NCBI GenBank assembly: GCA_013329055.1
Contig: DUKY01000015.1
Span: 2,339 to 66,338, forward strand
DNA length: 64,000 bases
DNA from: Nanobdellota archaeon
GTDB taxonomy: Archaea > Nanobdellota > Nanobdellia > Pacearchaeales > GW2011-AR1
Direction of reading: 5' to 3'
How positions within the stretch are numbered: the first letter of the stretch is position 1; the number at the start of each line of letters is the position of its first letter. Under the pieces are notes generated by a model. That model saw only the letters and a list, made by a program, of their open reading frames with translations, did no database searches and was not told the origin of the DNA. Below, piece by piece: positions 2,643-58,957 of the stretch. The position numbers and the translations under genes were made by a program.

Positions 2643-3479
2643 ATGAAAAATAAAACAATGAGTCTAAAATTAACAACAGATAAATTAAAATATCAAAATT
2701 TAAATAAGCAGGAAAAAAACCAGCAGTGGTGGGAAGAATTGCCTATGACTTATGAAGATTGGGATTCAAAAAAAAGAATTCCCGAAACAAAAGAAGATTT
2801 TTTAGAAATTGAAAAAAGATTTTTAGAAGAAAGTCCTTTTATTAAAAATCAATTTAATTTTAAAAGATTCAAAAATAAAAAAGTTTTAGAAATCGGTTGT
2901 GGGTCTGGAGCTGTTAGTTGTTTATTCGCAAAAAATGATGCAAAGGTTACAGCAGTAGATATCACCAAACAAGCCATTAATCTCGTAAAAACAAATGCGA
3001 AATTACAATGCTTGAATATTAATGCTTTACAGCAAGATGCCGAAAAATTAACTTTTGCAAAAGAAAATTTTGATTATGTTTTTTCCTGGGGGGTATTGCA
3101 TCATTCTCAAAATACTTTAGATGCATTTAAACAAGTGGAGAGAGTTTTGAAAAAAGGTGGTTCTGGTTTAATAATGGTTTATAATAAAAATAGTGCTAGA
3201 TATTATATTAACGGATTAAATTGGTTAATTTTAAAGGGAAAAATTTTCAAAGGATATAATCTGAGAAATGTTCAAGATTTCTATACTGATGGGTATTATC
3301 ATAGACATTTTATTCCAAATGAATTAAAACAAGAATTGGAAAAACTTGGATTAAAATGTACTAAAGTATTTACAACGCACATGGGTCATAGGATGCTTCC
3401 GTTTGCCCCCCTATGGTTTGAAAAATGGATTAAGAATAATTATGGGTGGTTGTTAGTTATAGAATTTGAAAAAAGGTAA
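2643..3479 (+). CDS. Class I SAM-dependent methyltransferase
   Basis: Motif I VLEIGCGSGAVS, then the acidic loop AVDIT and FDYVFSWGVLHH. Confidence 0.75.
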   Translation: MKNKTMSLKLTTDKLKYQNLNKQEKNQQWWEELPMTYEDWDSKKRIPETKEDFLEIEKRFLEESPFIKNQFNFKRFKNKKVLEIGCGSGAVSCLFAKNDAKVTAVDITKQAINLVKTNAKLQCLNINALQQDAEKLTFAKENFDYVFSWGVLHHSQNTLDAFKQVERVLKKGGSGLIMVYNKNSARYYINGLNWLILKGKIFKGYNLRNVQDFYTDGYYHRHFIPNELKQELEKLGLKCTKVFTTHMGHRMLPFAPLWFEKWIKNNYGWLLVIEFEKR

Positions 3480-47303: not shown

Positions 47304-49715
47304 ATGATTCAACTCACTCCTGGAATGCAACAATATATGAAAATTAAAAATGCAAATCCGGATTGCATAATTCTTTTTAGAATGGGCGATTTTTATGAAA
47401 CTTTCTTTGAAGATGCAAAAACTGTTGCCAGAGAATTAGAAATCACACTAACTTCAAGAGGAAAAGGTGAATTTAAAGCCCCTTTAGCAGGTCTTCCGTA
47501 TCATGCACTTGACCCTTATTTAGCAAAATTAGTGAAAAAAGGGTACAAGGTAGGAATAGTTGAACAAATCGAAGACCCAAAAAAAGCAAAAGGGTTAGTA
47601 AAAAGAGATTTAGTAAGAATCATCACCCCCGGAACAGTCGTCGAATCTTTAATCCTTGAACAAGGGTCAAATAATTATATTTTAAGTTTTGTAAAAGACA
47701 ACGATGAATTTAGCATAAGTTTTTGTGACCTCTCTACCGGAGAATTTTTAACAACAAGACTAAACTTGGACCAATTTTTAAATGAGTTAAAAAGAATCAA
47801 CCCCGCAGAAATTATTTTTCCAATGTCTTTAGAAGAATCAGAATTTATTTTAAATTTAAAAAAAGATCATTTAATTAATTCTTACGATGATAGATTTTTT
47901 TATCATGAAAAAGCAATGGAAGTTTTAAATAATCATTTTAAAACATTAAATTTAGATGGTTTTGGAATACAAGATAAATTAATGCAAAGTTCTTCAGGAG
48001 CATTATTATCCTATTTAAAAAATACACAGCAAAATGCTCTAACTCATATAAATAAAATTCAAAAATACGAATTAAATAATTACATGTATTTAGATAATGC
48101 AACCATTAGAAATTTAGAATTATTAAATAACATAATCTTGCAAAGTGAAAATTCTACATTGTTAGGAGTGCTTGATAAAACAAAAACTCCGATGGGAAAA
48201 CGTTTAATTAAAAGATGGATTATTTCGCCTTTAATAGACAAAGATGCAATTCAAAATCGTTTAGATTCTGTTGAAGAATTAAAAGAAAATATTTTTTTGC
48301 GTTCTGATTTAAATAATTCTTTGCAAAATGTTTACGACATTGAAAGATTAATTGCAAGAGTAGCATATGGTAACGCAAATCCTAAAGATTTGGTTGCATT
48401 AAAACAATCATTAACATTCTTGCCTAAAATTAAAGAACTTTTAGAAAAAACTAAAAGTTTTGAATTGCAAAAAATTTCTAAAATTCCTGACTTGGAAATG
48501 GCAAGAAAAAAAATTCAGGATGCAATAAAAGATGAGCCAAATACAATTATCCGTGAAGGAAATATTATTCGTAATGGCTATAACTCTGAATTAGATGAAT
48601 TGCGGGAATTAACCCATAACACAAAAAAATATTTAACAGAATTAGAAGAAAGAGAAAGACAACGTTCAGGAATAAAATCCTTAAAAATTAATTATAATCG
48701 TGTTTTTGGATATTACATTGAAATTACAAAATCAAATCTTCACTTAGTCCCAGAGGATTATATCCGTAAGCAAACTCAGGTTAATTCAGAACGTTTTATC
48801 ACCGAAGAATTAAAAGAAAAAGAATCTAAAATATTGGGTGCAGAAGAAAGAATCTTTGAACTTGAACAGGAATTATTCTTTAAATTATTAGAAGATTTAA
48901 AACAATATGTCCCTCAAATTCAATTAGCTTCAAAAATAATTGCAAAACTTGATTGTTTTATTTCTTTTGCAATTGTCTCAGAAGTCAATAATTATTGTAA
49001 ACCCTCTTTTAATTCATACGGAATTTTAGAAATAAATTCTTCAAGGCATCCTGTAATAGAAGCATTTTCAAATATTGATTTTATAACAAACTCTTGCAAT
49101 CTTAATAATGACAAAAGGACAATGATTATTACCGGACCAAATTTAGCAGGAAAATCTACATATCTAAGGCAAATAGCATTAATTTGTTTAATGGCACAAA
49201 TAGGTTGTTTTGTCCCTGCAAAAAGTGTAAATCTTCCAACCATTGATAGAATTTTTAGTAGGATCGGAGCATACGATGATCTTGTTCACGGGCAATCAAC
49301 TTTTATGGTAGAGATGAGCGAAACAGCAAATATTTTAAATAATGCCACAAAAAATTCTTTAGTAATTTTAGATGAAATTGGGCGTGGAACTTCAACTTAT
49401 GACGGTGTATCGCTGGCATGGGCAATTGCCGAATATTTGAATAACAAAATACAGGCAAAAACTTTGTTTGCAACACATTATCATCACTTAAATAAAATGG
49501 AACAAATGTTTAAAGGAATAAAAAATTATAACATTGCAATAGAAGAAACAAATGACAGGATAATCTTTTTAAGAAAAATTATCGAAGGCGGAACAGACAA
49601 AAGTTATGGAATTCAGGTTGCAAAACTTGCAGGAGTGCCGGAAGCTGTTGTAAATTCTGCAAAAAGAATTATGAACTTAATTGAAGAAGGAAAGTGGGAT
49701 AAATTTGAGAATTAA
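47304..49715 (+). CDS. mutS: DNA mismatch repair protein MutS (bacterial MutS1 type)
   Basis: TPGMQQYMKIK...FRMGDFYETFFEDA (mismatch-binding FxE), Walker A GPNLAGKST, STFMVEM, DEIGRGTSTYDG. Confidence 0.9.
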   Translation: MIQLTPGMQQYMKIKNANPDCIILFRMGDFYETFFEDAKTVARELEITLTSRGKGEFKAPLAGLPYHALDPYLAKLVKKGYKVGIVEQIEDPKKAKGLVKRDLVRIITPGTVVESLILEQGSNNYILSFVKDNDEFSISFCDLSTGEFLTTRLNLDQFLNELKRINPAEIIFPMSLEESEFILNLKKDHLINSYDDRFFYHEKAMEVLNNHFKTLNLDGFGIQDKLMQSSSGALLSYLKNTQQNALTHINKIQKYELNNYMYLDNATIRNLELLNNIILQSENSTLLGVLDKTKTPMGKRLIKRWIISPLIDKDAIQNRLDSVEELKENIFLRSDLNNSLQNVYDIERLIARVAYGNANPKDLVALKQSLTFLPKIKELLEKTKSFELQKISKIPDLEMARKKIQDAIKDEPNTIIREGNIIRNGYNSELDELRELTHNTKKYLTELEERERQRSGIKSLKINYNRVFGYYIEITKSNLHLVPEDYIRKQTQVNSERFITEELKEKESKILGAEERIFELEQELFFKLLEDLKQYVPQIQLASKIIAKLDCFISFAIVSEVNNYCKPSFNSYGILEINSSRHPVIEAFSNIDFITNSCNLNNDKRTMIITGPNLAGKSTYLRQIALICLMAQIGCFVPAKSVNLPTIDRIFSRIGAYDDLVHGQSTFMVEMSETANILNNATKNSLVILDEIGRGTSTYDGVSLAWAIAEYLNNKIQAKTLFATHYHHLNKMEQMFKGIKNYNIAIEETNDRIIFLRKIIEGGTDKSYGIQVAKLAGVPEAVVNSAKRIMNLIEEGKWDKFEN

Positions 49716-50152
49716 GAAATCCTTATATTCTCTTCTTTAATTGTATTTAAAATTAAACTTGTCTCAGTTTTTTTAATAAAATCATATTCCTGAATTTTTT
49801 TCAAAAAAGTATTTAATGATTTTCTGTTTTTGAATTTTGCAATCATCATTGCATCAAAATCTCCGGTTATATCATAAATCGCAAAAACATTTGGTTCTTT
49901 ACTTAATTTTTTTTCAGCTTCTTTGAACATTCCGTGTGTTATTCGCATGTTTATTATTGCACTAACATCATAGCCTAACTTTTCATAATCTAAATTGATT
50001 GTATGATTCTTAATCACTTTTTCTTTTTCCAGCTCCTTCATCCTCTTTAGCACAGTAACGCCTGACACACCGACAAAACTTGCAATTTTTCTATATGAAC
50101 GATTAGAGTTTTCCAGTAAAACATTTAATATCTTTGTGTCAATTTGGTCCAT
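49712..50152 (-). CDS. Lrp/AsnC-family transcriptional regulator
   Basis: DQIDTKILNVLLENSNRSYRKIASFVGVSGVTVLKRMKELE HTH plus a C-terminal RAM/AsnC_trans_reg domain. Confidence 0.85.
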   Translation of the reverse strand: MDQIDTKILNVLLENSNRSYRKIASFVGVSGVTVLKRMKELEKEKVIKNHTINLDYEKLGYDVSAIINMRITHGMFKEAEKKLSKEPNVFAIYDITGDFDAMMIAKFKNRKSLNTFLKKIQEYDFIKKTETSLILNTIKEENIRIS

Positions 50153-50289
50153 TTTTACTTAGCAAATGATTAATTTATTTGTCAATATTTTTAATACACT
50201 TAACAAATATATAAACTTTTTCAATAAAATTAACAAATGTTAATTAATTTTGCCAAACTGTTAATAAACATTTAATTCTTAACTTAAAA

Positions 50290-50472
50290 ATGGAATATAA
50301 AATAAAATCAGCAAAAGAACAAAGAACCTGCAAATATCAAGGAAGTTGTAAAGTTGGTGAGTGCAATGGAAGAAGCCAGCAAAGTGGTGTTTATCATAAT
50401 TGTTACCAGCCACTTCCGAAAATTATTCGTGGAGACTTATTCTTGAAAAAAGGTCTATTAAAAAAACTGTAA
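50290..50472 (+). CDS. Small Cys-rich hypothetical protein (weak call)
   Basis: 60-aa ORF upstream of mutL with 5 Cys (CKYQGSCKVGECNG...NCYQ). No recognised motif. Confidence 0.25.
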   Translation: MEYKIKSAKEQRTCKYQGSCKVGECNGRSQQSGVYHNCYQPLPKIIRGDLFLKKGLLKKL

Positions 50473-50518
50473 TTTTTTAAACATAAATTAATAAAAATAG
50501 TTTGTTTTTATTTCTTTA

Positions 50519-52249
50519 ATGGTAATTAAACTTCTTGATAATTCGATAATAAACAAAATCGCCGCAGGAGAAGTCATTGAAAGGCCTGCTTCAGTCGTTA
50601 AAGAATTATTAGAAAATTCTTTTGATTCAGGAGCAGACGAAATAAAAATAGAAATCTATGACGCAGGAATAAAAAAAATTAAAATTTCAGATAATGGTTC
50701 AGGGATGACTAAAGAAGATGCCTTGATTTCATATAAGCGTCATACAACTTCAAAAATAGCTAATGAAGAAGATTTATTTTCAATTAATTCTTTAGGTTTT
50801 CGTGGTGAAGCTTTAGCCTCAATTGCCGAAATTTCAAATTTAAAAATAATCACCAAAACTTTTGATTCTTCTTTAGGAACATTTATTGAAGTTGAAGGAG
50901 GTAAATTAATAAAAGAAGAACAGATTGGATGTTCAAACGGAACAATAATCGAAGTAAATGATTTATTTTTTAACGTTCCCGCAAGAAAAAATTTTCTTAA
51001 AAGTAATGAAATTGAACTTTCAAAAATAATTAATATCATTACAAAATATGCTTTAATAAAAAATGATGTTTCAATTAAATTAATTCATAATAATAAAGAA
51101 ATTTTAAACTCCCATAAAACTAATTTCTTAATTAATAATATTATCTTTGTTTATGGTCCTGAAATTGCAAAAGATTTAATCAATGTAAATTATGAAGAAA
51201 ATGGAGTTATCGTTAAAGGTTATATCTCAAAACCTGTATTAACACGGGCAGATAAATCTGACCAGTCTTTATATGTAAATAAAAGATATGTAAAAAATAA
51301 TATTATTTCGCAAGCAATTTATGAAGCGTATAAAACTTTACTTTTTATAAATCGTCATCCTGTTTTTATCTTGGAAATATTAATCGATCCAAAAGAAATT
51401 GATGTAAATGTTCATCCCGCAAAAACTGAAATTCGTATTAAAAAAGAAGAATTAATTTCAGGAATTATTTTTAATTCAATAAAAAATGCTTTTCAAAATA
51501 GCAATTTAATTGTTTCTGCTTCGCTGGAAAATGAAACAAATCATAAATCGATAAAAAAATATGAATTTGCAAAAGATAAGCAATCTGTCTTAATGGTTAA
51601 AGATGATTCAAATTATCTTTCAACAAATCTTTATTCGGAAAAATCCAATTTTACTAAGAAAAAAAATATTTTTGAAAATTTTTATCTGCTTGGGCAAATT
51701 AATAAGACTTATATTATTGGAGAAAATCCTGAAGGATTAATTGTTCTTGATCAGCATGCTGCAGAAGAAAGAGTTAATTATGAAAAATTTATGAATGAAA
51801 AAAAATCCGGAGCGATCAAAAAACAAAATCTATTAACCCCAAGAATAATCGAATTAACACCTGTTCAATATCGTGCGGCATTAAATAATAAAACTTTCTT
51901 TGAATCTTTAGGTTTTAATTTTGATGATTTTGGAAATAATTCAATAAAATTAACAACTATCCCAGAAATTTTTGGAAGGTTAAAATCAACTTTATTATTA
52001 GATGTTATTAATGAGCTTGTAAATTTAAAAGGAAAAATTGTCGACAAAGAAATTGAAGAAAGAATAATTCGTTTTGCATGCCGTGCATCAGTAAAAGCAG
52101 GAGAAGAATTAACAAGTGTAGAAATGCGACAGTTAATAGAAAATTTAGGAAAAACTGATAATCCTTATTCATGTCCACACGGAAGACCAACTTTGATAAG
52201 TTTCAGTATTGCAGATTTAGAAAAAAAATTTAAGAGGACTGGTTGGTAA
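50519..52249 (+). CDS. mutL: DNA mismatch repair protein MutL (endonuclease-type)
   Basis: GHKL ATPase motifs (AAGEVIERPASVVKELLENSFDSGA, DNGSGM, GFRGEAL). C-terminal DQHAAEERVNYE and CPHGRPT endonuclease motifs. Confidence 0.9.
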   Translation: MVIKLLDNSIINKIAAGEVIERPASVVKELLENSFDSGADEIKIEIYDAGIKKIKISDNGSGMTKEDALISYKRHTTSKIANEEDLFSINSLGFRGEALASIAEISNLKIITKTFDSSLGTFIEVEGGKLIKEEQIGCSNGTIIEVNDLFFNVPARKNFLKSNEIELSKIINIITKYALIKNDVSIKLIHNNKEILNSHKTNFLINNIIFVYGPEIAKDLINVNYEENGVIVKGYISKPVLTRADKSDQSLYVNKRYVKNNIISQAIYEAYKTLLFINRHPVFILEILIDPKEIDVNVHPAKTEIRIKKEELISGIIFNSIKNAFQNSNLIVSASLENETNHKSIKKYEFAKDKQSVLMVKDDSNYLSTNLYSEKSNFTKKKNIFENFYLLGQINKTYIIGENPEGLIVLDQHAAEERVNYEKFMNEKKSGAIKKQNLLTPRIIELTPVQYRAALNNKTFFESLGFNFDDFGNNSIKLTTIPEIFGRLKSTLLLDVINELVNLKGKIVDKEIEERIIRFACRASVKAGEELTSVEMRQLIENLGKTDNPYSCPHGRPTLISFSIADLEKKFKRTGW

Positions 52250-53793: not shown

Positions 53794-53988
53794 TGCCCGG
53801 ACCTGTTCTCCTGCCTTCGCACGAAACTTTATGGATTATTATTTCTACCACGAAGTTACTCGTCGAACCCTTGGGTTCTTCATCCCAGAAATGCGCGGAC
53901 CTGTTCTCCTAACTTCGCTCGAAATCATTTGGATTATTATTTCTACCACGAAGTTACTCGTCGAACCCTCGGGTTCTTCATCCCGAAA
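53794..53988 (-). repeat. Two tandem units of about 97 bp directly 3' of tRNA-Gly, each a T-arm/acceptor copy split by an insert
   Basis: Units at 53794-53891 and 53892-53988. On the minus strand each reads ..CCGAGGGTTCGA-[about 66 nt]-GGTCCG(C/G)GCA, versus tRNA CCGGGTTCGAATCCCGGTCCGCGCA. Confidence 0.9.
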
Positions 53989-54060
53989 TGCGCGGACCGG
54001 GATTCGAACCCGGATATTCTGCTTGGAGGGCAGAAAGTCTAGCCATTGACCTATCCACGC
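53989..54060 (-). tRNA. tRNA-Gly (anticodon UCC by manual fold)
   Basis: GCGTGGA-TA-GGTC-AATGGCTA-GACT-T-TCTGC-CCTCCAA-GCAGA-ATAT-CCGGG-TTCGAAT-CCCGG-TCCGCGC-A. G1:C72, C2:G71, G3:C70 and A73 fit archaeal Gly. Loop position 33 reads C. Confidence 0.8.
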
Positions 54061-54143: not shown

Positions 54144-54269
54144 CGCCCGAGACAGGATTTTGCTTTCAATCACTCTCTAAATTTTTGGATTATTTTTCTC
54201 GTGTAATTGTTCGACCTGCGATTTCAAACTTATTTGAATTTAAGCAGGATTCAAATCCTTTTTAAAAAC
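54144..54269 (-). repeat. Partial copy of the tRNA-Arg 3' portion with a T-loop insertion
   Basis: Minus strand: ATCGCAGGTCGAA-[about 52 nt]-AAATCCTGTCTCGGGCG, versus tRNA GTCGCAGGTTCAAATCCTGTCTCGGGCG. A 17-nt exact copy of the tRNA 3' end lies at 54144-54160. Confidence 0.85.
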
Positions 54270-54344
54270 CGCCCGAGACAGGATTTGAACCTGCGACCTA
54301 AGCATTAGGAGTGCTTCGCTCTATCCAGGCTGAGCTACTCGAGC
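54270..54344 (-). tRNA. tRNA-Arg (anticodon CCU)
   Basis: GCTCGAG-TA-GCTC-AGCCTGGATA-GAGC-G-AAGCA-CTCCTAA-TGCTT-AGGTC-GCAGG-TTCAAAT-CCTGT-CTCGGGC-G. A clean 75-nt cloverleaf. Confidence 0.9.
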
Positions 54345-54351
54345 AAATGGA

Positions 54352-54632
54352 TTTGGAAGAAAACTCAGAAAATTGAAAAAATTCTCTGGGACTTCAACAG
54401 ACAGTGCAGTTGAAGTGATTCGAACTCTTCCCATTCGAATCTTAATGCGGAAGAAAACTCAGAGAATTCTTTTCATTCTCTGGGACTTCAACAGACAGTG
54501 CAGTTGAAGTGATTCGAACTCTTCCCATTCGAATCTTTATGTGGAAGAAAACTCAAAGAATTTTTTCAATTCTTTGGGACTTCAACAGACAGTACAGTTG
54601 AAGTGATTCGAACTCTTCCTATTCAATCTTTA
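54352..54632 (-). repeat. Three tandem units of about 93-94 bp directly 3' of tRNA-Leu (acceptor/T-arm minihelix-like copies with a two-hairpin insert)
   Basis: Units at 54352-54445, 54446-54539 and 54540-54632. Each reads (minus strand) ..TGGGAAG-AG-TTCGAATC-[insert]-TTTCTTCC(A/G/A)(C/C/A)A. Confidence 0.9.
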
Positions 54633-54716
54633 TGTGGAAGAAAGGATTCGAACCCTCGCAGGCACTAAGCCACTGGAGCCTTAATCCAGCCCGTTTGACC
54701 GCTCCGGCACTTCCAC
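54633..54716 (-). tRNA. tRNA-Leu (class II, long variable arm; the anticodon loop UUAAGGC gives a formal anticodon of AAG)
   Basis: GTGGAAG-TG-CCGG-AGCGGTCAA-ACGG-G-CTGGA-TTAAGGC-TCCAG-TGGCTTAGTGCCTGC-GAGGG-TTCGAAT-CCTTT-CTTCCAC-A. 84 nt. Confidence 0.8.
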
Positions 54717-54750
54717 ATATAGTTTTTTAGAAGATTTAGTTTTTAATAAT

Positions 54751-55078
54751 TGTGGAGCGGGAAAACGTTTGACCCGAGCGATTTCATATGCTCTAAATCT
54801 GTTTACGTAACTTACGCATATGGGATTGCGAGTTGAGCAATTACGATTGCAATAAATTCTGAAAAGTAAATTTGAAAAATCGCAAGCGTGGTTGTGAGTA
54901 ACGTAGGCACTTCCACATTTTTGAGGAGTGGGAAAACTCGTTTGACCCGAACGATTTCATAAGCAATAAATTGCTTGCGTATCTTTAACGCGAGTGAGAT
55001 CGTGAGTTGAAAGTTTTTGTCCAACTTCCGATAACCCCTGATTTTGGACAAGGGCTTGAGTTTCTCCGGCACTTCCGC
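54751..55078 (-). ncRNA. Two head-to-tail tRNA-Leu 5'-fragment units (acceptor 5' strand plus D-arm split by structured inserts of 105-135 nt). Function unknown.
   Basis: U2 (55078->54919): GCGGAAGTGCCGGAG-[insert]-CGGGTCAAACGAGTTTTCCCACTCCTCA. U3 (54916->54751): GTGGAAGTGCC-[insert]-GGGTCAAACGTTTTCCCGCTCCACA. Neither has an anticodon arm or a T-arm. Confidence 0.6.
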
Positions 55079-55112
55079 ATTATTCTATTTAAAGCAATAA
55101 AAGAAATCTTTT
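55079..55112 (-). promoter_or_regulatory. Putative archaeal promoter of unit U2 (copy 1 of a duplicated 34-nt segment)
   Basis: Minus strand AAAAGATTTCTTTTATTGCTTTAAATAGAATAAT abuts GCGGAAG. About 30 of 34 nt match 55264-55297. AT-rich TATA-like elements are present. Confidence 0.5.
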
Positions 55113-55137
55113 AATCCTTTTGGATTTGAATTTTATT

Positions 55138-55263
55138 TTCGAACCCTCGCAGGCACTAAGCCACTGGAGCATTAATCCAGCCTAGTTTGATCCGAAGGTT
55201 TTCGCGAACTTTCCCAATTGCCCTTGATGTGAGCAAGGTTGTGAGTAGCGTAAGCACTTCCGC
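55138..55263 (-). pseudogene. tRNA-Leu-like gene body, either incomplete or requiring non-standard processing
   Basis: GCGGAAGTGC-[59-nt insert, 55195-55253]-CGGATCAAACTAGG-CTGGA-TTAATGC-TCCAG-...GAGGGTTCGAA, then unrelated sequence. No T-stem 3' strand or acceptor 3' strand follows. 45 nt match tRNA-Leu with 1 mismatch, at anticodon position 36. Confidence 0.6.
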
Positions 55264-55297
55264 ATTATTATGATTAAAGCAATAAAAGAAATCTTTC
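55264..55297 (-). promoter_or_regulatory. Putative promoter of unit U1 (copy 2 of the duplicated 34-nt segment)
   Basis: Minus strand GAAAGATTTCTTTTATTGCTTTAATCATAATAAT abuts GCGGAAG. Confidence 0.5.
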
Positions 55298-55301
55298 TGA
55301 T

Positions 55302-57440
55302 TTAATTAGGGAATCTTAAAAAGTTCATATTTCGAGTCGAAAGGGCTAATAATTCATTTTGACTATAAAGTTTGTTGTATATTGCTGCTTCTGTTGCAGG
55401 ATCACTACCCGAAAAAATTTCATAATAAGTAGCCCCTTTAATCTTTTTAATACTTTTAATACCTACTAAATGACCATATCCTGTTTTAGGATCCAACTTC
55501 TGAACAATCATATCCCCTGGTCTAAGATCATTAACATTATTGATTGGAATTAAAGTTTTAACTAATGAGCCTGTATTTGTATTAGCTTGTACACTTTCGA
55601 CATATTCTTTAAATTGTTGATTTTTAAGATTTTCATCGTATGTTTTAACAATAACTTTTCCAGAACTAAAAATGGAATATTCATCCTTAGAAAATCTTAA
55701 AGTTTCTCCATTAGCTATTTTATATCCGAAATCTTCAATGTTCCCTTTTTCAAGTTCATTATAGTGATATAAAGCATCAAGTTCAATTTGTGTATCTGAA
55801 CATTTTTGTTCTTTAGAATCAACAATTAAATTTAAAACATCTTTGTTTTGTTTTTTAAGTACTGGAGTTTTAAATCTATTCCCAAATGCATCATAATAAT
55901 AATACGTGTTAGTATTTTTTATTACCGGAAATCCTTCTATAAATTCAGAATAGCCAACTTGGGCATTTCCATTCTTTATACCTAATGTTTCTGCAAAATA
56001 TCCTCTTTGCTTTTCTGAATCAATTTTATAAGCAGAAGATGTATCCAAATTCAAATCATACACTTGGATTTTTTCAGGAGTATCATAATGAATTACCATA
56101 TCTGATTGTGTAGTAAAAACACTATCATCTTTAATATTTGTATAAACTTTTCCATTGTCTGCTTTTAAATTCCATGCTCCATTTTGAATTTCAAATTTTC
56201 CATCTGCATTTATATCTAATGAAATAGGTTTGTTATCCGGAGAAATTTTAGAAATCTCTAAATTTCCTCCATTTACCGTAAATTCTAATTTTCCTTTTCG
56301 TGGTGTAAAAGAATCTGAATATTTTTCTTCAATAAATTCCGGAAATATTTTGTTATCTTTTGTTAAACTCGAAGTAAAACCTTCTCCTCCTAACCAGATT
56401 TTTTTATTTCCATAATTAAAATAATTCTCGCCTTTATGTGACAAAGCATTAAACTCCTCGTCATAGTAAACATTTAAATCTGCATTCTGAGTTTTATGAT
56501 TTATTCCGTCAATTGTCGCATCAGTTCCTTCCAAAACCTTTACAATTTTTCCATTTTCAACTGTAACTCTTCCCATCTTTCCATCTAAACCTTTAATTTC
56601 ATTCCCATCAAATTTAAAATCACTTTTACTTTGATATATTGCTTCTCCTTTAGGAATATCTTCGCCCTTTAGAATTGTTCCAAAATCTTCTGAACCTTCA
56701 GGAATTTCAATTTTTGGCGGTTCATTATTATTAACATTATAAATAACCCTTGAATTAGGTGGTGCTTTAAAATCTCCTTTTCCAAAATCATAAACTCCTC
56801 CACTTTCATTTGTTGTAAAACTTGCATTAATGATCTTTCCTGTCGAATCAATCTCTATAAATGATGGAAGCTTAGCTTCACTTTGCGATTTAATATTTTC
56901 AAATTTTTTACCTGAGATTTCCAAACTTGCATTCTCTCCGAATGTTAACCTGCTAATTCCTTCTTTTTTTTCAAATGTAACCCCTTTTACACTAATCTCT
57001 TCTTTGTTCAAATTTTCACCAATTAAATCTCCGATTTGTACGTTTTCTCCACCTCCAAATTTCATTGCCCCTTCAATAATTTGTCCTTCTCCATCTATTT
57101 TTAAGGGTTCAATAATCTCTGCTCCATTTTGTTCCAAATTGTCCACCTTTTCGAGGGTATTAATAATTGGTCCTGCTTCAGGTGCAACTTCACTTGCAAC
57201 ACCCCTTGTTTCTTCATAAACCTTTGGCATAAGCCCTTGTGCATTTACATAAGTCATACATGTATTTACTTCTGAATTTGGGTCACAGTGTGTTAAAGCT
57301 TGGCTCTGTATTATTTGAACTACTAAAACTATAAGTGCTGCAACTACTGCCGTTGCTCCAATAATTCCTTCGCCGGAACTTGCTGGAATAGTCCCAATCA
57401 TTAACATCATTGCAAAAATAATAACCAATAGTTTTTTCAT
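55302..57440 (-). CDS. Large (712 aa) secreted or membrane-anchored surface protein, function unknown
   Basis: N-terminal signal plus a second hydrophobic segment (MKKLLVIIFAMMLMIGTIPA...IIGATAVVAALIVLVVQII). Gly/Asn/Lys-rich and beta-rich body. 4-nt overlap with the upstream gene. Confidence 0.6.
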   Translation of the reverse strand: MKKLLVIIFAMMLMIGTIPASSGEGIIGATAVVAALIVLVVQIIQSQALTHCDPNSEVNTCMTYVNAQGLMPKVYEETRGVASEVAPEAGPIINTLEKVDNLEQNGAEIIEPLKIDGEGQIIEGAMKFGGGENVQIGDLIGENLNKEEISVKGVTFEKKEGISRLTFGENASLEISGKKFENIKSQSEAKLPSFIEIDSTGKIINASFTTNESGGVYDFGKGDFKAPPNSRVIYNVNNNEPPKIEIPEGSEDFGTILKGEDIPKGEAIYQSKSDFKFDGNEIKGLDGKMGRVTVENGKIVKVLEGTDATIDGINHKTQNADLNVYYDEEFNALSHKGENYFNYGNKKIWLGGEGFTSSLTKDNKIFPEFIEEKYSDSFTPRKGKLEFTVNGGNLEISKISPDNKPISLDINADGKFEIQNGAWNLKADNGKVYTNIKDDSVFTTQSDMVIHYDTPEKIQVYDLNLDTSSAYKIDSEKQRGYFAETLGIKNGNAQVGYSEFIEGFPVIKNTNTYYYYDAFGNRFKTPVLKKQNKDVLNLIVDSKEQKCSDTQIELDALYHYNELEKGNIEDFGYKIANGETLRFSKDEYSIFSSGKVIVKTYDENLKNQQFKEYVESVQANTNTGSLVKTLIPINNVNDLRPGDMIVQKLDPKTGYGHLVGIKSIKKIKGATYYEIFSGSDPATEAAIYNKLYSQNELLALSTRNMNFLRFPN

Positions 57441-58186
57441 TGTTCAACAATAAATATCCAATTTAATTTCTTTTCGGAAGTATCTTCTTTGTCATTTATT
57501 AAAAACCAAATAATATCATCTTCATATATTGATGGGTCTTCATGAGGGACTGCCAAAATATTAACATTGTTCTTTTCAGAGATTTCTTCTAAACATGTTA
57601 AACAAATAGTTCCCGGATTTTCAATGTACGATTTGATGATTTCTACTGATGCTTCATGGAACTTTTTAAGGTCATAATCTAAATTTGTTTCTGTATTAAA
57701 TCGTGATTTATCTTCTCCTTTAATAACTGTTATTTTATTAAGCATTTTAATCTCAATGTTCTCTTCATTTATCTTTGCTAAAATTGAATAATTTTCATTC
57801 TCTATCTCAAACCCCCGTGTTTTATAACTCTCTAAATCAAAACAGGAATTTAGATTCTCTGAAATATATTTTGCTAATTCTTCTTTAATAATTTCTATTG
57901 TAGGCGTATAATTTTTTGATTCTAAAAAATAATAAGGAATATCTTCAGTAAAATAGACTATTGAAGTTTCAAAAGGGACATCATAATAACCCCCATGTGA
58001 TGCAATGTAATGAACTCCTTCTTCGCTAGTTGTTTCAAAACAAGATTGAAATTCATTATAAACTGGGTCTATACTTTCAGGGATTCCTCCAATTTTAAAA
58101 GAATCTCTTGAAAGAAATATAATCGCTGTAAGAGCAATAACTACAACTGCTATTATTATGAATATTGTAACCTGTCCTCTTTTCAT
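57437..58186 (-). CDS. Protein with an archaeal class III (type IV pilin-like) signal peptide. Start moved to MKRGQ.
   Basis: MKRGQVTIFIIIAVVVIALTAIIFL is a KRG/Q cleavage-type motif followed by a hydrophobic helix. The track ORF extends to 58231. Confidence 0.6.
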   Translation of the reverse strand: MKRGQVTIFIIIAVVVIALTAIIFLSRDSFKIGGIPESIDPVYNEFQSCFETTSEEGVHYIASHGGYYDVPFETSIVYFTEDIPYYFLESKNYTPTIEIIKEELAKYISENLNSCFDLESYKTRGFEIENENYSILAKINEENIEIKMLNKITVIKGEDKSRFNTETNLDYDLKKFHEASVEIIKSYIENPGTICLTCLEEISEKNNVNILAVPHEDPSIYEDDIIWFLINDKEDTSEKKLNWIFIVEQ

Positions 58187-58271
58187 AAATATCTTAAATA
58201 AACACGCGTTATAAAATTTGTGATTTTTCAAGATAAAAAGCTTTATAAAGTAGGAAAATTAGATAATTTTG

Positions 58272-58384
58272 AAGACGGCCATAATAGGTTGGAAATACCT
58301 GTTCCCATCCCGAACACAGAAGTTAAGCTTCCTATGTTAATGACTGTAGTGCCCGACAAGGTGCAAACTCATTAAGCTGTCTTT
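58272..58384 (+). rRNA. 5S ribosomal RNA (stand-alone)
   Basis: CCCATCCCGAACACAGAAGTTAAGC hallmark. The terminal helix AAGACGGC/GCTGTCTT closes the molecule. Confidence 0.85.
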
Positions 58385-58444
58385 CATTTTCTTTTAAAAT
58401 GCATTTAATGTAAGTTCTGCATCAATAACTTCTCTAGGCATTAT

Positions 58445-58699: not shown

Positions 58700-58957
58700 A
58701 TGAAAAAAATCTCTAAGTCTCAAATTCAAAAAGATATTCATGAATTCTTTATAAATATTAAAGAAAAAACTCCAAAAGAAATTAAAAAAATAAAACGTCT
58801 GGCAATGAAAGATAATATAGCATTAAAAGAATTAAGAAAAACTTTTTGTAAAAAATGTTTAAACCCTTATAATAATCCTAAAATAAGAATTAAAAATAAA
58901 ATTAAAATTATAGTTTGTAATAATTGTAATTATATTTCAAGATATAAATTAAAATAA
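58700..58957 (+). CDS. rnp4: RNase P protein component 4 (Rpp21/Rpr2-like zinc ribbon)
   Basis: LRKTFCKKCLNPY...IRIKN...VCNNCNYISRY matches the Rpr2 CxxC...CxxC pattern, with a basic N-terminal helix. Confidence 0.6.
   Translation: MKKISKSQIQKDIHEFFINIKEKTPKEIKKIKRLAMKDNIALKELRKTFCKKCLNPYNNPKIRIKNKIKIIVCNNCNYISRYKLK

Follow-up and report, generated by a model that had tools for sequence, protein, structure and literature searches.

The tRNA-Leu fragments that lie upstream of an intact tRNA-Leu gene in this archaeal contig are best read, with a probability of a little over one half (about 0.55), as non-functional partial copies of the 5' end of that gene that were made at the DNA level, rather than as pieces to be joined as RNA. 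More specifically, and with the same probability, they are recombination scars that carry a small family of shared inserts, of the sort that integration of the pTN3 type at tRNA-Leu leaves behind, and that were amplified locally.

The window, by which we mean the whole 64-kb stretch of DNA that was analysed, comes from GW2011_AR13, a small groundwater DPANN archaeon. All array coordinates refer to the minus strand, along which the features are:

58231 to 58250, minus strand: ancestral tRNA-Leu promoter, CTTTATAAAGCTTTTTATCT, still adjoining the 5S rRNA gene
55302 to 58231, minus strand: block of two ORFs (264 aa, no family; 712 aa, DUF4846) between the ancestral promoter and the tRNA-Leu array
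55264 to 55297, minus strand: promoter-like copy 1, GAAAGATTTCTTTTATTGCTTTAATCATAATAAT, resembling the Leu promoter type of L154, L037 and L035
55113 to 55263, minus strand: U1, made up of tRNA-Leu nt 1–10, an insert, a degenerate D-loop, CGGATCAAACTAGG, and a Leu body
55233 to 55213, minus strand: conserved insert core of U1, CTCACATCAAGGGCAATTGGG
55079 to 55112, minus strand: promoter-like copy 2
54917 to 55078, minus strand: U2, with tRNA-Leu nt 1–15, a hairpin-rich insert of 117 nt and the D-loop copy GGGTCAAACG
54751 to 54916, minus strand: U3, with tRNA-Leu nt 1–11, an insert, the D-loop copy GGGTCAAACG and the tail TTTTCCCGCTCCACA
54717 to 54750, minus strand: AT-rich leader or promoter directly 5' of the intact tRNA-Leu gene, copied along with U3 in L001
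54633 to 54716, minus strand: intact tRNA-Leu(AAG), matching the Rfam tRNA model with 50.4 bits
54352 to 54632, minus strand: trailer units T1–T3, 93–94 nt each
54144 to 54345, minus strand: tRNA-Arg(CCT) and one 125-nt trailer, whose last 17 nt copy the tRNA 3' end
53794 to 54060, minus strand: tRNA-Gly(TCC) and two trailers of 97–98 nt, which end in copies of the tRNA 3' end

Three units open with the 5' end of tRNA-Leu, and we confirmed, almost to the base, the starts that the preliminary description had given for them: 55263 (GCGGAAGTGC, nt 1–10, in U1), 55078 (GCGGAAGTGCCGGAG, nt 1–15, in U2) and 54916 (GTGGAAGTGCC, nt 1–11, in U3). Each runs directly into its insert, in agreement with the positions reported there (after nt 10, 15 and 11). 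The promoter-like 34-mers noted upstream of U1 and U2 are identical at 30 of 34 positions (55297–55264 versus 55112–55079), and to call them a duplicated promoter was right, the segment being a copy of the promoter type TTCTAAAGNTTTTTATAT that serves tRNA-Leu in this lineage. U3 follows U2 directly, head-to-tail, with no 34-nt segment between them, as had also been described, and all of the stems quoted earlier are found in the sequence. The anatomy of a unit has five parts: tRNA-Leu from nt 1 to nt 10–15; a short non-coding insert; the D-loop copy; a tail of 13 nt that is a near-inverted copy of the D-arm; and a short, A-rich spacer. In U2, for example, the tail AGTTTTCCCACTCC is followed by the spacer TCAAAAAT. 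The ends of U2 and U3 (GAGTTTTCCCACTCC and GTTTTCCCGCTCC) had been likened to those of the trailer units (GAGTTTTCTTCCRCA); the likeness holds, but the same bases are described equally well as an inverted copy of the tRNA D-arm, GGAGYGGTCAAAC, with two mismatches. TACGYTACTCACAACC occurs exactly twice, in U1 and U3 (0.2 chance matches expected at up to three mismatches).

Only U1 goes on into a Leu-like body, which had been recognised from the outset: 45 nt are 98% identical to the body of the tRNA, with the loop TTAATGC. This 3' part corresponds to the anticodon, variable and 5' T-arm parts of tRNA-Leu, with the anticodon AAT, and is broken in the T-loop. As reported before, it lacks an acceptor 3' strand, its last bases being GGGTTCGAA (55138), and the single matching 3' end, CTTCCGCA, is found on the minus strand only at 54446–54453. 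U1 is a hybrid pseudogene; a U module may have recombined with the tRNA gene within their common D-loop sequence to give rise to it.

One explanation put forward in the preliminary description was trans or alternative joining of tRNA pieces. In the form considered here, the 5' units and the 3' units of the trailers would be joined as RNA through a bulge-helix-bulge (BHB) structure to give extra tRNA-Leu species. The layout has features that fit: 5' ends and 3' ends number four each, their acceptor strands are nested (GTGGAAG/CTTCCAC twice, and GCGGAAG/CTTCCGC), U1 and U2 have promoter copies of their own, and the wider lineage includes Nanoarchaeum, which is known for split tRNAs. However, the pair U1–T3 breaks the nested match, and the presence of a further unit, U3b, in another assembly shifts it. 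Each of T1–T3 closes with a copied tRNA-Leu 3' end (CTTCCACA, CTTCCGCA and CTTCCAAA), but ARAGORN recognised no tRNA in 66 joins of U1, with its insert removed, to the 3' ends of T1–T3; nor did it call the same U1 joined to a real or perfect tRNA 3' end, whereas the real gene was called. The D-arm of U1 is degenerate, and the 3' strand of the T-stem in the trailers (GTTTT) is unable to pair with GAGGG. Complementarity between the 3' flank of U1 and the T units is marginal (RNAduplex, −15 to −17 kcal/mol versus −11 ± 3 for shuffles, p ~0.04–0.07), the pairing being AT-rich and interrupted. By inspection alone, no BHB was found around the inserts. This includes a model in which splicing would proceed via the CCGG palindrome (nt 10–13) of two 5' copies; a central helix with AG/N bulges can be drawn for it by eye, but the flanking helices are unpaired in every species, and the model was rejected. 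In addition, tRNA-Gly and tRNA-Arg have trailers yet no upstream 5' units, and relatives have ordinary genes for Leu(UAG), Leu(CAA) and Leu(CAG). With an intact tRNA-Leu(AAG) gene adjacent, joins that give no tRNA and weak complementarity, the split-tRNA reading of the units is not supported, and we regard RNA joining as highly improbable.

Comparison with related genomes favours a DNA-level origin. At least five other species carry, upstream of tRNA-Leu genes, homologous U modules with the same boundaries (L039, L186 and L154, where the gene is Leu-CAA, with short forms in L023 and L035). In L186, L023 and L154 the 5' fragment begins 22 nt after a TATA box, a spacing equal to that of the normal tRNA in L017; the fragment thus stands in the exact normal position of the tRNA, and the intact gene has been pushed downstream. 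This is the arrangement produced by att-type integration at a 5' target, in which the fragment keeps the promoter and the rebuilt gene is displaced, and the window has its counterpart in the promoter stranded at 58250–58231. That promoter is now ~3.5 kb from tRNA-Leu, whereas in relatives 22 nt separate this motif, beside 5S, from the tRNA-Leu gene downstream; the two-ORF block is missing from the corresponding position there, and 5S and tRNA-Leu are separated by ~70–100 nt. The block carries no hallmark of a mobile element. The other explanation in the preliminary description, a recombination graveyard, comes near to this evidence but is incomplete, since the U module, with the same boundaries in all of these species, is not random debris.

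The U module is part of a wider pattern of tRNA-end duplication across the lineage. Among 84 tRNA genes from AT-rich related loci, 16 are followed within 350 nt by an exact copy, at least 9 nt long, of their own 3' terminus; in these Pacearchaeota/Woesearchaeota relatives the copy comprises the last 9–25 nt of the gene and mostly lies 88–102 nt away. A 5' copy upstream was found for four of the 84, all of them Leu genes, with about 0.1 expected by chance. The 3' repeats run from the T-loop or T-stem through the end of the gene or beyond, and the 5' repeats from nt 1 to the D-loop. As in att-type partial duplication, these are direct repeats identical to a tRNA terminus (10–17 nt at the 5' side, 9–25 nt at the 3' side) with an intact gene at one border. 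The enclosed DNA measures 43–190 nt and clusters near 75–85 nt, which gives a period of ~88–102 nt.

This period, close to the length of a tRNA plus a short spacer, and the evident tandem arrays would also be expected if the whole tRNA gene had simply been duplicated in tandem and had then decayed, without any foreign DNA and with the units of ~95–100 nt as drifted old copies. The T units do hold an acceptor-5'-like GGGAAG and the T-loop-like GTTCGAATC, and the Gly trailers hold CGTGGTAG, which is similar to the 5' end of tRNA-Gly. We nevertheless think this origin rather unlikely, because it does not account for a perfect distal terminus next to an unrecognisable remainder, for the same insert families beside different tRNAs in both orientations, or for the retention of the ancestral promoter position by the 5' fragment instead of the intact gene.

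Under the preferred reading of recombination scars, an insertion in the 5' portion of tRNA-Leu would leave a layout of this kind, and the trailers of tRNA-Leu, tRNA-Arg and tRNA-Gly, which copy the T-loop to the 3' end, would be the mirror-image equivalent on the 3' side. The inserted DNA would belong to a few short sequence families, common to different tRNAs and species and used in either orientation. The locus may have been struck repeatedly: a two-gene block of ~3 kb would have come between the ancestral promoter and tRNA-Leu, and unequal recombination between repeats of 11–15 nt could then have multiplied the units. At the RNA level, U2, U3 and the tRNA would be co-transcribed, and the units would be removed by cleavage as a 5' leader. 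The locus is a rearrangement hotspot, as indicated by the promoter stranded at 5S, by the inversion of the Leu gene in L189, where a GCGGAAG remnant sits at the promoter, and by the replacement of Leu(AAG) with a Leu(CAA) gene in L154.

Unit copy number is not fixed and differs between assemblies. L001, from another assembly of the same organism, contains a second copy of U3 (U3b), 200 nt long and 95% identical, in tandem with a period of 201 nt; when read by eye, the differences between U3 and U3b are scattered and one of them disrupts a stem. Such disagreement between assemblies, together with two contigs (L002 and L003) that end inside the repeats, could mean that the array was built from strain variants or by collapse or expansion of repeats during metagenome assembly. 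We judge this very improbable, however: independent ENA, JGI and NCBI assemblies show the same arrangement, many substitutions and indels separate the units from each other, and other species, in unrelated assemblies, have homologous modules too.

Parts of the units are strongly conserved. The U core CTCACATCAAGGGC (also given as CTCACATCAAGGGCGA..., the Gly-trailer core being GAACCCGAGGGTTCGACGAGTRACTTCGTGGTAGAA) is identical in three species, those of the window, L186 and L154, for which 5S rRNA is ~87% identical between the window and L186 (the locus in L154 has no 5S). The tRNA-Gly trailer family is likewise conserved in other species, with a stretch of 37 nt that is 95–97% identical. Conservation of both elements across species argues for constraint or recent spread rather than neutral scars. 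It equals or exceeds that of 5S rRNA, and is consistent with the alternative that both kinds of unit, the U modules and the trailers, mimic tRNA ends and have a function, either as small RNAs or as cis-acting elements in the leader and trailer. Such an RNA would have an acceptor-like closing stem and a D- or T-loop, would be co-transcribed with the tRNA and freed by tRNA-processing enzymes, and might act as a regulator, a decoy or a guide-like RNA; dicistronic tRNA–sRNA precursors are reportedly made in Nanoarchaeum equitans. The predicted folds of U2 (minimum free energy −46.9 kcal/mol, z −4.0) and U3 (z −2.4) pair their 5' and 3' ends, three hairpins form in the T units (z −2.3 to −3.2), the units have a stereotyped length of ~95–100 nt, and the tail tracks tRNA position 16 (G/C16 in the window, A/U16 in L039, L154 and L186). 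When the sequences were read, a few pairs were seen to be altered in both strands of the stem: in U, from UCGC/GCGA to UUGC/GCAA; between T1 and T2, from CAAAG/CTTTG to CAGAG/CTCTG; and in the Gly trailer, from UAAC/GUUA to UGAC/GUCG.

Two-sided changes in hairpins can also come from template switching, however, as the T3 hairpin shows: its loop and that of T1 are exact inverse complements, a signature of that process. Consensus folds are weak, both for U (RNAalifold, −6.9 kcal/mol, with an unfavourable covariation term) and for five Gly trailers (−4.8 kcal/mol). There was no match to an Rfam RNA family at E up to 10, and the large inserts of U2 and U3 and the T units have no relatives among the other species searched. 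Moreover, the U core also occurs opposite in orientation to tRNA transcription: it lies inverted inside a tRNA-Gly trailer of L186, colinear over ~58–90 nt, with an alignment score of 35–37 versus a maximum of 24 in 200 shuffles. Presence of the module is patchy among relatives, even at the same locus. The inverted core, the patchiness, the difference in copy number and the weak consensus fold indicate that U is a DNA-level rather than an RNA-level entity, and we consider a function as RNA or as a cis-acting element unlikely.

Two more specific RNA candidates were considered. A self-cleaving ribozyme or other known RNA family in the leader was rejected, tRNAs being the only Rfam matches at E up to 10. 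C/D box sRNAs are a poor fit to the trailers, in which the motifs are partial and the Gly-trailer consensus fold is weak: trailers start with the C-like sequences GGGATGA or GTGATGA, and T2 and T3 have CTGA close to their ends, but no consistent D box, spacing or terminal stem was found in comparison with RUGAUGA/CUGA and a 12-nt guide spacing. The sole Rfam match of the trailers was to sR45 (16 bits, E 2.5), and in L154 and L186 the C-like motif belongs to a duplicated native flank.

Scans of the neighbouring ORFs with Pfam and NCBIfam detected no integrase or recombinase gene, or remnant of one, in or beside the array, and the DNA between the repeats encloses no kb-scale mobile element. Translated U has no protein relatives; its frame 1 is open in L154, L039 and L186, but copies differ by indels whose lengths are not multiples of three, and a coding remnant of a split integrase was rejected. 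A MITE or other transposon was likewise dismissed, as the ends, when read, lack terminal inverted repeats, repeat length varies from 9 to 40 nt, and there are no dispersed copies in the rest of the 64-kb window. We also rejected a viral or proviral origin, because scans of IMG/VR viral contigs gave nothing beyond chance matches: none for the Gly-trailer motif or the U tail, and 21 for the family-B motif, none of them near a tRNA. The pattern used to scan metagenomes, GGTCAAACGN{0,2}TTTTCCC, is unspecific; it gave 120 matches, mostly high-GC chance occurrences, with only L154 real.

Several observations run against scars. Insert length is clustered, an unexpected outcome if kb-scale elements had decayed at random; the repeats are short (9–25 nt) relative to the 41–44 nt of characterised archaeal systems; stem pairs have changed on both sides; and copies are absent from viral contigs and from elsewhere in the window. 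The inserts of ~85 nt are not accounted for by scars. We suggest tentatively, as an outside chance worth keeping in view, that these inserts and the flanking copies of tRNA termini form a previously undescribed class. They may be miniature non-autonomous elements that insert at tRNA ends in either orientation and duplicate the end, or they may be small RNAs that mimic tRNA ends and are processed by tRNA maturation enzymes. Such a class would be widespread in Pacearchaeota/Woesearchaeota, and could supply promoter-bearing tRNA fragments of the kind that gave rise to the split tRNA genes of Nanoarchaeota.

Element integration is known to leave partial tRNA genes beside intact ones, and these often mislead tRNA annotation. 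Unusual here are units of ~100 nt with a stereotyped length and no recombinase, and insert families that recur beside different tRNAs, in different orientations and in different species within a lineage of ultrasmall archaea that is related to one with split tRNA genes. If the inserts are mobile or expressed, the promoter-bearing 5' fragments, the 3' fragments and the inverted genes would be natural intermediates of tRNA gene fragmentation. If they are neither, the locus serves as a warning: tRNA fragment is the proper annotation for these units, and at this site assemblies break or disagree in copy number.

The array resembles the split and tri-split tRNA genes of Nanoarchaeum equitans and Caldivirga maquilingensis in having separately promoted 5' tRNA pieces in a Nanoarchaeota-related lineage. 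It differs in that its pieces make no full cloverleaf, an intact gene exists, and the breaks fall in the D-arm and T-loop rather than at positions 37/38; no complementary leader/trailer helix or BHB was found, and pairing is AT-rich and interrupted where split genes have long GC-rich helices. Bacterial CIMEs, which are cis-mobilisable elements that form accretion arrays at tRNA genes, also consist of tandem, non-autonomous units without a recombinase between repeated att copies at a tRNA end, but they are kb-scale, and no integrase-bearing partner element is known here.

Partial tRNA genes at element borders arise from integration of mobile elements (PMC9897764), and in Caldiarchaeum subterraneum a tRNA-Thr 5' fragment accompanies an insertion sequence with a recombinase (Sugahara et al., 2012, PMC3293823); a connection with how disrupted tRNA genes originated was proposed by the authors. 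Those elements span 1.8–23 kb and encode recombinases or viral genes, whereas the DNA enclosed here is tiny, non-coding and tandemly amplified; shared with them are the 5' fragment as a direct repeat upstream of an intact or reconstituted tRNA and a locus that is heterogeneous in the population.

The integrase of pTN3 from Thermococcus nautili uses tRNA-Leu nt 2–44 as attB, rebuilds the gene away from its promoter and also catalyses inversions (PMC5495485). There the common segment is 41 bp and a plasmid lies between the repeats; here the segment is 10–17 nt, no integrase gene or split integrase remnant is detectable, and the short insert is conserved across several species, in which it keeps its boundaries. 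The likeness to pTN3/SSV-type integration nonetheless extends to the target, tRNA-Leu, to a repeat that is the 5' part of the gene, and to recombinase-driven inversions between tRNA genes, with which the inverted Leu gene of L189 and the inverted U core of L186 may be compared; in both systems, a full gene is rebuilt downstream of a 5' fragment that has remained at the original promoter.

We examined the minus-strand units that open with a tRNA-Leu 5' fragment (U1, U2 and U3) and the three trailer units (T1-T3) that follow the intact tRNA-Leu(AAG) gene. The window has a G+C content of ~28% and a high coding density, and carries archaeal ribosomal proteins and RpoN. Identical protein matches assign it to archaeon GW2011_AR13, known from Rifle groundwater metagenomes.

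Features of the locus, in window coordinates
58271-58385, strand opposite to the tRNA cluster: 5S rRNA
58250-58231, minus: stranded promoter
58231-55302, minus: two ORFs
55297-55264, minus: promoter copy 1
55263-55113, minus: U1
55112-55079, minus: promoter copy 2
55078-54917, minus: U2
54916-54751, minus: U3
54750-54717, minus: AT-rich leader
54716-54633, minus: tRNA-Leu(AAG)
54632-54352, minus: three Leu trailer units, 93-94 nt each
54345-54144, minus: tRNA-Arg(CCT) and one trailer (54144-54268)
54060-53794, minus: tRNA-Gly(TCC) and two trailers (53794-53988)

Trailers of ~94-125 nt lie behind all three tRNAs of the cluster (three for Leu, one for Arg, two for Gly), each terminating in a copy of its own tRNA's 3' end. 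MutS and MutL homologues are encoded near each other (47304-52249) in this ultrasmall archaeal genome. An 85-aa zinc-ribbon protein (58700-58957, plus strand) shows weak similarity to RNase P Rpp21/Rpr2 (Pfam E 0.007, below cut-off; PDB 1x0t E 0.34), and an ORF resembling it sits after tRNA-Gly in a relative (L039).

Every specific statement in the preliminary description of the units was borne out by the sequence. The 5' ends, the inserts after nucleotides 10, 15 and 11, the TACGYTACTCACAACC shared by two of them and the quoted stems are all present, and the two promoter copies match at 30 of 34 nt. U1 contains 45 nt with 98% identity to the tRNA body, has the loop TTAATGC and breaks directly after GGGTTCGAA; CTTCCGCA occurs once on the minus strand, at 54446. 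A different assembly of this organism contains an additional U3 copy (200 nt, 95% identical), and contigs L002 and L003 terminate within the repeats, indicating that unit copy number is polymorphic or uncertain. At the ends of U2 and U3, the GAGTTTTC-like sequence matches the reverse-complemented tRNA D-arm (GGAGYGGTCAAAC) with at most two mismatches; each unit thus folds with its tRNA-like 5' end paired to its 3' tail.

By contrast, the proposal that these pieces are joined, in trans or alternatively, into a tRNA is not supported. ARAGORN called no tRNA in any construct in which U1 without its insert was fused to the 3'-terminal 8-29 nt of T1-T3 or to a perfect tRNA-Leu 3' end; it did call the genuine tRNA-Leu gene. 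The U1 D-arm lacks the D-loop GG, the trailer T-stem strand GTTTT is unable to pair with GAGGG, and the U1 3' flank pairs with the trailer units only marginally better than shuffled sequences do. Acceptor strands match in nested order (GTGGAAG/CTTCCAC twice, GCGGAAG/CTTCCGC); this order breaks for the outermost pair, and moves by one if the extra U3 is counted. There are no upstream fragments at tRNA-Gly or tRNA-Arg, although both have trailers. We conclude that the U units are genuine, yet are not tRNA parts awaiting ligation.

Scanning one genome per species with a tRNA-Leu anticodon-arm pattern yielded 35 loci, almost all from Pacearchaeota, Woesearchaeota or 'Nanoarchaeota' MAGs, and further loci were retrieved via the adjoining 90-aa membrane protein. 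The cluster of 5S (opposite strand), tRNA-Leu(AAG), tRNA-Arg(CCT) and tRNA-Gly(TCC) is conserved, and relatives have conventional genes for Leu(UAG), Leu(CAA) and Leu(CAG) outside it, indicating that the AAG isoacceptor is normal for the lineage. A34 tRNAs are unusual in Archaea; the A34 tRNA-Leu (54633-54716 in the window), kept across this lineage, may reflect AT pressure on CUU codons. Short anticodon-loop introns occur in tRNA-Gly(TCC) genes of L017 (1294-1381), L018 (656-747; mislabelled tRNA-Glu by ARAGORN) and L181 (2539-2625). In AT-rich loci of relatives, 16 of 84 tRNA genes are followed within 350 nt by an exact copy of at least 9 nt of their own 3' end, mostly 88-102 nt away. A 5' copy lies upstream of four of the 84, all tRNA-Leu (chance expectation ~0.1). 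In other loci, for example L036, L031 and L027, tRNAs are closely packed, with neither trailers nor 5'-fragment units.

U homologues with matching boundaries lie upstream of tRNA-Leu in L039 (with a 100-nt period), L154 (preceding tRNA-Leu(CAA)), L186, L023 and L035, those of L023 and of a second Leu gene of L035 being short forms. The 5' fragment starts 22 nt past the TATA element in L186, L023 and L154, the same distance as for the normal tRNA in L017; the fragment thus occupies the ancestral start, with the intact gene displaced downstream. The window retains the ancestral promoter CTTTATAAAGCTTTTTATCT next to the 5S gene, now upstream of two ORFs, and its promoter copies at U1 and U2 represent the other Leu type (TTCTAAAGNTTTTTATAT), found at Leu genes of L154, L037 and L035. 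Within 55302-58250, these ORFs encode a 264-aa protein with no family match and a secreted-looking 712-aa DUF4846 protein; the ~3-kb block is absent from the 5S-tRNA-Leu interval of every relative examined.

Other rearrangements also involve tRNA-Leu. In L189 (3270-3520; also L190 and L191), tRNA-Leu(AAG) is inverted with respect to 5S and its promoter, with a 7-nt GCGGAAG remnant at the place behind the promoter where the gene normally starts; ARAGORN overlooked this gene because of a canonical intron of ~50 nt at position 37/38. L154 has a Leu(CAA) gene at the site normally occupied by Leu(AAG). In L186, the conserved U core CTCACATCAAGGGCGA occurs twice with its flanks, in opposite orientations (~2700-2800, plus; ~3380-3475, minus), one copy ahead of tRNA-Leu and the other within the tRNA-Gly trailer, enclosing the entire Leu, membrane-protein, Arg and Gly cluster. 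Given this inversion, replacement and bracketing, tRNA-Leu genes are recombination hotspots in the lineage. Separately, L185 has a trailer-type module between promoter and tRNA-Leu, and a free-standing LAGLIDADG homing-endonuclease-like ORF and a Fic-domain ORF (1842-2684) beside its tRNA-Arg/tRNA-Leu cluster.

Conservation of the inserts raises the alternative that U units and trailers are constrained as functional RNA. Window U1, L154 and L186 share the U core CTCACATCAAGGGC without a single difference, and the 5S rRNAs of the species sharing it are 73-91% identical to the window's. Similarly, the tRNA-Gly trailer (window 53892-53988, L011 7397-7492) contains a 37-nt stretch, AAGAACCCGAGGGTTCGACGAGTAACTTCGTGGTAGAA, that is 95-97% identical in L011, L154 and L018, exceeding the conservation of 5S rRNA; L186 also has this trailer. 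A C-box-like GGGATGA or GTGATGA lies at its start, with no convincing box C/D architecture found. A few stem pairs are altered on both sides, as constraint would predict. However, the U core inside the L186 tRNA-Gly trailer runs in the opposite orientation, aligning colinearly with the U family along most of its extent, far above shuffled controls. U presence is patchy in close relatives, consensus folds are weak, and neither the long U2/U3 inserts nor the Leu trailer units have relatives elsewhere. The two U3 copies, compared by eye, differ at scattered positions, and one difference disrupts a stem. Moreover, the T1 and T3 terminal hairpins (54558-54583 and 54370-54395) differ on both sides of the stem (CAAAG/CTTTG versus CAGAG/CTCTG), and their loops, TTTTC in T3 and GAAAA in T1, are exact inverse complements of each other. 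This is a signature of quasi-palindrome template switching, which also generates apparent compensatory changes without selection.

Insert families beyond U are also common to different tRNAs. Members of the GGTTCGACGAG family lie behind Gly in four species and behind Leu in L187; those of the AAATCGGTTTAAACGAA family lie behind Leu in L016 and L010, behind Arg in L038 and ahead of Leu in L185. The duplicated segment reaches past the tRNA into native downstream flank in L154 and L186, and is 40 nt long in L187. In the most likely account, with a probability of about 0.55, the tRNA-Leu 5' part would first have undergone insertion or recombination, mirrored at the T-loop-to-3'-end of several tRNAs; units would then have been amplified locally through unequal recombination, and recombination would also have produced the pseudo-tRNA U1. 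At the RNA level, the U units would form a 5' leader. The weak Rpp21-like match and the abutting tRNA genes of relatives, such as L036, suggest that removal of leaders is possible. Most of the remaining interest lies in the nature of the ~85-nt inserts, which may be relics, miniature mobile modules or small RNAs.

The topology of the U locus matches that of known integration systems. The pTN3 integrase of Thermococcus nautili uses nucleotides 2-44 of tRNA-Leu as attB (41 bp common with attP), reconstitutes tRNA-Leu at a distance from the promoter it originally had and also inverts stretches of DNA lying between tRNA genes (PMC5495485). In Caldiarchaeum, a tRNA-Thr 5' fragment precedes the intact gene, with a recombinase-encoding insertion between them, an arrangement put forward as a path to disrupted tRNA genes (PMC3293823), and integrated elements are commonly bordered by partial tRNA genes (PMC9897764). 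Unlike these cases, no recombinase was found at the U locus, the repeats are short, the enclosed DNA is tiny and stereotyped in size, and the inserts are conserved across species.
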